DNA from: a virus
Taxonomy: Duplodnaviria > Heunggongvirae > Uroviricota > Caudoviricetes
Direction: 5' to 3' (one strand)
IMG/VR virus record: IMGVR_UViG_3300028591_000102
Coordinates: 88,579-152,578 of that record
Length of the DNA: 64,000 bases
Under the pieces are notes generated by a model that searched no databases, was not told the DNA's origin, and was given only the letters and a program-made list of their open reading frames with translations. Below, in pieces: positions 37,030 through 37,295 of this stretch. Numbering within the stretch: position 1 is the first letter of the stretch; the number at the start of each line of letters is the position of its first letter. The position numbers were made by a program, and so were the translations under genes.

Positions 37030-37295
37030 AGCGACCATATTTTTATATATATTTTTATTTTATATTTTTATATATATTATTATATATTTATATTACTTTC
37101 CAAATTTTTTGACACCTTCGCCAAATTTTTTGGCAATATGGTCAAATTTTTTGGCGAGCATCGCCAAATTTTCTGACATTAGATGTCAGATTTTTTAGGT
37201 ATTCATCCGCCAAATTCTTTGGCTTTGAAAGACCAAATTTTTTGACAGTTGAACCAAATTATTTAGTGATTCAACTGTCAAATTTTTTGGCTGGA
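37030..37295. repeat. Candidate replication origin: an AT-only tract (37030-37100) followed by about 8 iterons of GCCAAA-N3-TTTGGC (consensus CCAAATTTTTTGGC) at ~21-22-bp spacing, with two larger palindromes
   Basis: Copies lie at ~37100, 37121, 37142, 37163, 37210, 37232, 37254 and 37277. Palindromes tctgacattagatgtcaga and ttgacagttgaa...ttcaactgtcaa. Sits between the GIY-YIG gene and a wHTH gene. Confidence 0.55.

Follow-up and report, generated by a model that had tools for sequence, protein, structure and literature searches.

A candidate iteron-type replication origin and its putative winged-helix origin-binding protein in a large low-GC phage

Here we describe a locus in a large, low-GC (~33%), phage-like genome that is probably an iteron-type replication origin encoded together with its own origin-binding protein, in a phage whose replication module resembles that of SPbeta. 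The window referred to throughout is the whole stretch of DNA that was analysed, 64 kb of IMG/VR virus record IMGVR_UViG_3300028591_000102, and all positions are counted from its first letter. Read along the minus strand, the locus passes from an XRE gene and a winged-helix (wHTH) gene through nine iterons, an A/T-only tract and a GC hairpin to a ribosome-binding site and a GIY-YIG gene. An earlier sequence-only reading of the same DNA had proposed a DNA unwinding element (DUE) beside iterons, with the winged-helix protein as the candidate initiator. That proposal is strengthened here by profile matches of the protein to initiator families only, by conservation and co-variation of the whole module, and by the recurrence of the iteron in lambda-O-like initiator genes, all of them comparisons at the level of sequence.

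Gene order and the winged-helix protein

Almost every gene between ~9 kb and 64 kb of the window is on the minus strand, and profile scans of the open reading frames (ORFs) identify this block as one of replication and nucleotide-metabolism genes. It encodes a PolIII-alpha-like polymerase (16070-20032), a phage primase (22747-23865, minus strand) and a DnaB-like helicase (23880-25463, minus strand), the latter pair recognised through matches to phrog_47 and phrog_19, along with a RecJ-like exonuclease, Sak4, two topoisomerase II subunits, NrdD/NrdG, DNA and RNA ligases, PhoH, ClpP, RNase H and a uracil/xanthine permease. The helicase shares 32% identity with YorI of SPbeta, and the order helicase-primase-RecJ-polymerase equals the yorI-yorL order of that phage. 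Presumably it is this primase and helicase (22747-25463) that would act at the candidate origin.

Several other features of the region are recorded here. The permease is full length (39678-40985, minus strand; Pfam Xan_ur_permease, 4e-60) and is kept in loci L001-L003 and L006, and a formate/nitrite-transporter-like ORF lies at 11492-12055 on the minus strand; membrane-transport auxiliary genes of this sort are unusual for a phage. Two HNH/homing-endonuclease-like genes (31178-31942 and 33898-34746, minus strand) flank and interrupt the topoisomerase II genes, and together with the GIY-YIG gene they show a high load of mobile nucleases in the replication region. Perfect or near-perfect host-type promoters of the form TTGACA-17-TGnTATAAT stand before successive small genes on the minus strand, at 36455-36427, 36056-36028 and 38479-38451, which suggests an early-gene region read by a host sigma-70-type polymerase. 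When positions 35000-39000 were compared at the DNA level with GenBank phages, only 2% matched, which is chance level.

The XRE-type HTH gene (37627-37809, minus strand; 60 aa; Pfam HTH_3, 1e-11) overlaps the start of the wHTH gene (37278-37634, minus strand), and the two are probably co-transcribed. At the syntenic site an XRE homologue also precedes the wHTH gene in L001, L003, L006, L010, L019, L024, L026, L029 and L034. Between the XRE gene and an upstream gene of 114 aa there is a perfect 10-bp inverted repeat, ATACTTATTC-N7-GAATAAGTAT (37850-37876), a candidate XRE operator or terminator.

The candidate origin-binding initiator itself is a protein of 118 aa, a length shared by all close homologues, in which a C-terminal domain is absent. 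Against Pfam HTH_36 (PF13730) it scores 24.6 bits, the gathering threshold being 25 bits; about a quarter of the listed homologues have a precomputed PF13730 match, and more distant relatives reach 30-39 bits. Its PHROG matches fall to replication families only, namely phrog_186 (DnaD-like helicase loader; 1.7e-8, over its N-terminal 100 positions) and phrog_270 (replication initiation protein). Scanned singly, all 42 of the family members examined matched phrog_186, 33 matched phrog_270, five phrog_428 and one the lambda-O-like phrog_678, and none of the 42 matched a transcription-regulator PHROG at E <= 0.001. AlphaFold predicts a winged helix that is extended at its N-terminus (pLDDT 84.9), and for this model Foldseek ranked GntR, Crp and LexA regulators as the best structural matches. 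Matches to the DnaD N-terminal domain and to RepA_N initiators score no better than those to generic wHTH regulators and are compatible with an initiator. RepA_N initiators (pSK41/pTZ2162, PDB 4pta, 4pt7) have a C-terminal host-interaction domain and carry their iterons inside the gene. A search of PDB with a sequence profile of the protein returned generic wHTH matches only, for example eS25 and MarR.

The family to which the protein belongs has 1,252 representatives at E <= 0.001, mostly of 100-180 aa, and homologues occur on contigs of up to 188 kb. Since tblastn against GenBank phage genomes found no homologue, nothing can be transferred from a characterised relative among cultured phages, and our literature search found no published description of this wHTH/iteron family. 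Among the scanned ORFs of the window there is a DnaB-like helicase and neither an initiator domain for loading it nor a loader: DnaC, DnaI, P, G39P-like proteins and the DnaD C-terminal domain were all looked for. The N-terminal motif MANYANQ..I of the wHTH protein is kept across all the specificity types described below and is a candidate helicase contact.

Iterons, A/T tract and hairpin

On the 3' side of the wHTH gene, on the minus strand, lies the iteron array (37099-37291), in which nine phased dyads share the gene-strand motif GYCAAA-AAA-TTTGRC, or GYCAAA-TTT-TTTGRC on the plus strand. They occupy 37099-37113, 37120-37134, 37141-37155, 37163-37177, 37185-37199, 37209-37223, 37232-37246, 37254-37268 (a degenerate copy) and 37277-37291, with successive plus-strand starts 21, 21, 22, 22, 24, 23, 22 and 23 bp apart, and the copy at 37277-37291 overlaps the stop codon of the wHTH gene. 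The position assigned to the array in the earlier reading, downstream of the winged-helix gene and next to the XRE gene, is borne out on the minus strand; the phased array was also recognised correctly, at about eight copies where nine are present. All nine iterons have the same orientation, with T6 on the plus strand, and are therefore direct repeats of an imperfect dyad with an asymmetric centre. An iteron-type origin is expected to have at least three locus-specific tandem direct repeats, and here there are nine.

The array is the densest local repeat cluster of the 64-kb window. Where up to two mismatches are allowed, the dyad pattern matches 11 times in the 64 kb (expectation 4.2 +/- 1.9), eight of them inside 193 bp. 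The iteron is nearly unique to the locus within the window; the sequence-only reading had asked whether it is unique in the genome as a whole. Two larger palindromes, which had been taken to end the array, turn out to lie inside it: with the iterons numbered from 37099, TCTGACATTAGATGTCAGA (37172-37190) is where iterons 4 and 5 meet, and the pair of 24-nt arms (37233-37256 and 37267-37290) encloses iterons 7-9. Against Rfam the palindrome gave sub-threshold matches only, to no known RNA family. The predicted curvature of the array is at about the 99th percentile of the window and below the window maximum, a result that is qualitative only. DnaA boxes occur in the window at chance level, with none near the locus. 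Far from the array, at 62999-63029 within a methyltransferase-like ORF, a lone iteron-like 15-mer (ACCAAATTTTTTGAT, two mismatches) and a perfect match to the DnaA-box consensus (TTATCCACA, minus strand) are separated by 8 bp, a pairing that is probably due to chance. Readings of the array as CRISPR-like, as attP or as pac were rejected, as there are no adjacent cas, integrase or terminase genes and the geometry of the repeats is unsuitable.

Adjoining the array is an A/T-only tract of 59 bp (37037-37095), the candidate DNA unwinding element. It had been described as 70 bp of pure A/T (37030-37100), and while the tract is real the uninterrupted run is the shorter one. No other A/T-only run of the window is as long: the runner-up has 34 nt, as does the longest run in 200 shuffles. 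By a stability calculation, no 40- or 60-bp duplex segment in the 64 kb is less stable. An A/T-rich unwinding element next to the repeats is another feature expected of an iteron-type origin, and this tract has that place and composition. On the minus strand the conserved A/T block extends from AGTAAT (37097-37092) to ATATGG (37039-37034). The motifs of the tract have no second occurrence in the 64-kb window, which rules out a generic class of promoter.

The tract is bounded by a GC hairpin, or dyad (37023-37035), that reads GTCGC-GTA-GCGAC on the plus strand and GTCGC-TAC-GCGAC on the minus strand. On the plus strand it is a weak terminator-like site, with CATATTTTTA after it. The hairpin could serve as a clamp, as a structure in single-stranded DNA, or as a terminator for transcription arriving from the other side.

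Directly after the hairpin comes the GIY-YIG homing-endonuclease-like gene (36452-37009, minus strand; Pfam GIY-YIG, 4.6e-12). The C-terminal 60 aa of its product are a paralogue of the wHTH protein (38% identity, E 6e-9). A tblastn comparison of loci showed the gene only in the window and in L001, and it is a variable insertion outside the core module. Fusions of GIY-YIG with HTH_36 recur in the wider family (for example P0203), and the GIY-YIG protein may target origin-type sites.

Related loci and known origins

Homologous loci were drawn from IMG/VR, from Logan assemblies and from JGI/ENA metagenomes, and the layout of gene, iterons, A/T tract and hairpin is kept in about 70 related phage contigs. 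Wherever the downstream DNA of an IMG/VR or Logan locus was readable, the three-part module lies directly 3' of the wHTH gene, and the metagenome scan found it in all 38 of the family loci that had at least 300 nt downstream. Its site is conserved between the early genes and the topoisomerase/replication genes, the syntenic order being deoxyribosyltransferase, permease, small genes, XRE, wHTH, the module, variable small genes and topoisomerase II. The gene that follows the module on its 3' side varies, and a consensus promoter of its own (TTGACx-17-TATAAT) precedes it in many loci, after the hairpin. In one clade (L005, L017, L046 and L082-L090) the module is inverted as one unit relative to the gene, which indicates a cis-acting unit that is independent of the direction of flanking transcription.

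Spacing in the homologous arrays is held at 20-24 bp in 121 of 134 cases. The iterons themselves fall into at least seven types, each a dyad around an A4-6 centre, and each type is tied to one protein clade. When the predicted recognition helices of the proteins are set beside them, type A (GYCAAAAAATTTGRC) goes with a helix that starts SDEGARNA, type B (CCACGAAAATCGTGG) with GENGATSA or GVNGAKSA, type C (GGTACGAAAATCGTACC) with SKSSVSDA, type D (TCCCGAAAAATGGGA) with GKNGPKTA and type E (CGCCAGAWTCTGGCG) with GISTARGA, while types F (GGTCAAAAATTGACC) and G (ACCAAAAATTGGT) go with GSRNTVKN, GSKNTIRT or GSKNTILA. For types A-E, to which these figures apply, the proteins are 51-99% identical within a type and mostly 30-47% identical between types. 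Iteron type thus tracks both the protein clade and the recognition helix, which is the pattern expected if each protein reads its own downstream repeats. That the wHTH protein recognises the iterons is supported, indirectly, by this co-variation and by its profile matches to the N-terminal domains of initiators.

The other two parts of the module are constant across types. Across all iteron types the A/T tract is kept in sequence, in length (mostly 59-63 nt) and in strand bias; it begins AGTAATATAAATATA and ends AAATAAAAATATGG, and on the strand with the A-runs of the iterons A outnumbers T about two to one, with T almost always single. Of 30 loci, 24 have a perfect GC-rich stem at the place equivalent to the hairpin (4.3 +/- 1.8 in shuffled controls); it is built from 10 different 5' arms, so that the pairing is kept through compensatory changes despite the change in sequence.

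At least one genome has more than one such module. A 179-kb contig (IMGVR_UViG_3300021426_000065) has a type C module near 67 kb (L022) and a type B module near 149.5 kb (L026), of which L026 occupies the syntenic site and L022 a second one. L020 has the flank of that second site, but its cassette is of type E and includes a single relic iteron of type C, a sign that cassettes may be replaced.

The iteron was also sought outside the family, by an exact-pattern search for two adjacent perfect type A iterons in the 2.9 million viral contigs of IMG/VR. It returned 18 matching stretches, of which three are modules of the wHTH family and one is a 1-kb fragment that is not assignable. The other 14 sit within genes for lambda-O-like initiators of ~270 aa, in unrelated, smaller phages (L040-L057, contigs of 28-57 kb), so all resolved matches fall at HTH_36-type initiator genes. 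The N-terminal part of the ~270-aa protein is an HTH_36 domain (38.4 bits), and the protein matches phrog_678 ('replication initiation O-like') over residues 20-253 at 3.4e-14, as well as phrog_270 and phrog_186. Its gene carries four iterons, TGTCAAAAAATTTGACAGGGGG, in the linker, followed by an A/T-rich coding stretch, and to judge from this arrangement these are candidate embedded origins. The O-like genes, with their embedded GTCAAAAAATTTGAC iterons, thus share with the window a nearly identical dyad, a likeness that holds by construction because the iteron was the search pattern, together with the HTH_36 N-terminus and the PHROG families 186, 270 and 678. They differ in that their candidate origin lies within the ~270-aa gene, in the style of lambda and SPP1, whereas that of the window follows the stop codon, and their recognition helix is unrelated in sequence to that of the window wHTH protein (hhalign E 0.026).

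In lambdoid phages the sequence of the iterons varies with the N-terminal domain of the initiator and the AT-rich part is conserved. The type D iteron resembles the iteron of lambda. The lambda iterons are bent inverted repeats with A-tracts, adjoining an AT-rich region (PMC7466680), and the window likewise has imperfect inverted-repeat iterons with a central A-tract, in tandem at about two helical turns and next to an AT-rich candidate unwinding region. It differs from lambda in that the protein is the DNA-binding part alone, at 118 aa, with the candidate origin starting at its stop codon; in having nine iterons rather than four to six; and in that its tract is pure A/T and is bounded by a conserved GC hairpin. 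No sequence similarity of the window wHTH protein to lambda O itself was demonstrated.

SPP1, a phage of Bacillus (Firmicutes), has two origins, and its oriL consists of repeats and a DUE (PMC5737612). Its oriL and oriR resemble the window locus in their repeated boxes, their non-AAA+ initiator (the replisome organiser G38P), the adjoining A/T-rich DUE and the helicase that the phage itself encodes (PMC5737612); they differ in that oriL lies inside gene 38 and G38P is longer and is partnered by the loader G39P, and no homologue of G38P (PF09524-type) or of G39P was detected in the window. The embedded layout of lambda O and SPP1 G38P is not that of the window, where the region has in-frame stop codons and the array starts at the stop codon of the gene; because the candidate origin begins at the stop codon of a protein that is a DNA-binding domain only, it stands outside that layout. 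The origins of staphylococcal pathogenicity islands (SaPIs) lie directly 3' of rep (PMC9371898). They resemble the locus in having six to twelve iterons directly after the initiator ORF, an AT-rich region and, as proposed for the window, recognition by a winged helix with cognate specificity (PMC9371898). However, SaPI iterons are 5-6 nt long and lie on both sides of a central AT-rich region, and Rep is a self-loading helicase, whereas the window iterons lie on one side only and the window protein has no ATPase or helicase domain, so that of the definition of a SaPI-type origin only the position after the ORF is held in common. A search of the literature for the SPbeta origin found nothing useful. 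By analogy, then, the window element would work in the manner of the lambda, SPP1, SaPI and iteron-plasmid origins.

Mechanism, alternatives and significance

In the mechanism that we propose, the 118-aa wHTH protein would be made early, probably from a transcript shared with the XRE gene, and its dimers would bind the nine dyad iterons, the first of which overlaps the stop codon of its gene. With a phasing of 21-24 bp and A6 tracts at their centres, the iterons would set these dimers on roughly one face of bent DNA, and the DNA of the array would then wrap into a complex like the O-some of lambda. On supercoiled DNA the stress of wrapping would melt the adjacent 59-bp A/T tract, with the GC hairpin or clamp limiting the bubble, after which the DnaB-like helicase, the primase and the PolIII-alpha-like polymerase of the phage would be loaded. 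Rep proteins of plasmids are known to bind a single strand of a DUE that contains repeats (PMC4980987), and the conservation of the A/T tract in sequence and strand bias suggests that here too one strand may be recognised after melting.

The alternative raised at the outset was that of a dense operator array, in which the repeats would be coated by the wHTH protein, perhaps jointly with the XRE protein, so as to regulate transcription of the neighbouring genes; the A/T tract would serve as a promoter or UP-element, and the hairpin would be a terminator or a 5' stem-loop. The fold of the protein is a generic one whose closest structural matches are regulators of the GntR, Crp and LexA types, a regulator gene of the XRE type overlaps its own, and the GIY-YIG gene of the window has no strong promoter of its own, all of which would suit such an array. 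The best promoter within the module, however, matches at only 9 of 12 positions where neighbouring genes have 11-12 of 12, including a perfect TTGACA-17-TATAAT; the downstream gene varies from locus to locus, often with a consensus promoter of its own between it and the hairpin; and in one clade the orientation of the module is reversed with respect to the genes on either side. With the motifs of the A/T tract present once in 64 kb, as no promoter class would be, and with regulator PHROG matches in 0 of 42 family members, we consider the operator array distinctly unlikely. A centromere-like or DNA-organising site, used for partition, packaging or anchoring and bound by a small wHTH centromere-binding protein, is in our view highly improbable. 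TubR binds tubC and ParR binds parC, and phased repeats beside a wHTH or RHH gene are typical of type II/III centromeres; the phased direct repeats and adjacent small wHTH gene of the window look similar, TubR (3m8e) is among the weak Foldseek matches of the protein, and the genome is large and possibly temperate (SPbeta-like). Yet neither the scanned ORFs of the window nor the gene lists of related loci place a ParA, ParM, TubZ NTPase or terminase gene next to the locus, and the profile matches of the protein are all to replication initiators. A conserved, strand-asymmetric A/T-only tract of ~60 bp with a GC hairpin at its edge is likewise not a known feature of centromeres.

The locus might also derive from an origin without being the main one to fire, as a relic, an accessory origin, or a site of incompatibility or copy control acting through handcuffing or initiator titration; replication would then start at another site or by recombination. 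Cumulative GC skew, which the sequence-only reading had proposed as a check, gives the origin no support: it has no inflection at 37.1 kb, its sole turn in the window, near 7.5 kb, coincides with a convergent switch in gene orientation, and the measure is uninformative at this locus. The missing signal would fit a site that does not fire, as would the want of a helicase-recruiting domain in the wHTH protein, the presence in at least one genome (the 179-kb contig with L022 and L026) of two modules of different specificity, and the recombination proteins Sak4 and RecJ that the phage encodes. Set against this is the strong conservation of the entire module, in the A/T tract (its length and strand bias) and in the compensatory changes of the hairpin, across about 30-47% protein divergence. 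Conservation of all three parts argues for a selected function that needs an unwinding element and goes beyond titration of a protein, and we therefore judge a non-firing site to be very unlikely.

Beyond the replication origin itself, a bolder possibility, which we put forward as speculative and unlikely, is that the wHTH gene and its iterons form a swappable origin-specificity cassette that defines compatibility groups, that the protein is the smallest stand-alone initiator and needs no loader, and that the GIY-YIG protein attacks the origins of competitors. If so, at least seven types of cassette would sit between a conserved N-terminal motif on one side and a conserved unwinding element and hairpin on the other, with two sites in some genomes, and the cassettes would set the compatibility groups of replicons among large phages that co-infect a cell. 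The 118-aa protein would then be the smallest stand-alone initiator of any phage, one that recruits the phage helicase through an invariant N-terminal peptide. The GIY-YIG protein, which carries a wHTH derived from the initiator, could in that case home to, or attack, the origin regions of competing phages.

For the clade of large uncultivated phages to which the window belongs, with genomes of ~150-190 kb, an SPbeta-like replication module and no cultured relative, the locus offers a precise candidate origin and a candidate initiator, where to our knowledge no origins have otherwise been described. The split layout, with a protein that is a DNA-binding domain only and an origin that would begin after its stop codon, stands beside the embedded layout of the O-like genes and illustrates how origins and initiator genes may be rearranged with respect to each other. 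At least seven pairs of putative initiator and iteron, joined to one common candidate unwinding element, would make a natural panel in which to study the recognition code between winged helices and DNA and the specificity of origins, and such a panel could yield orthogonal replication modules.
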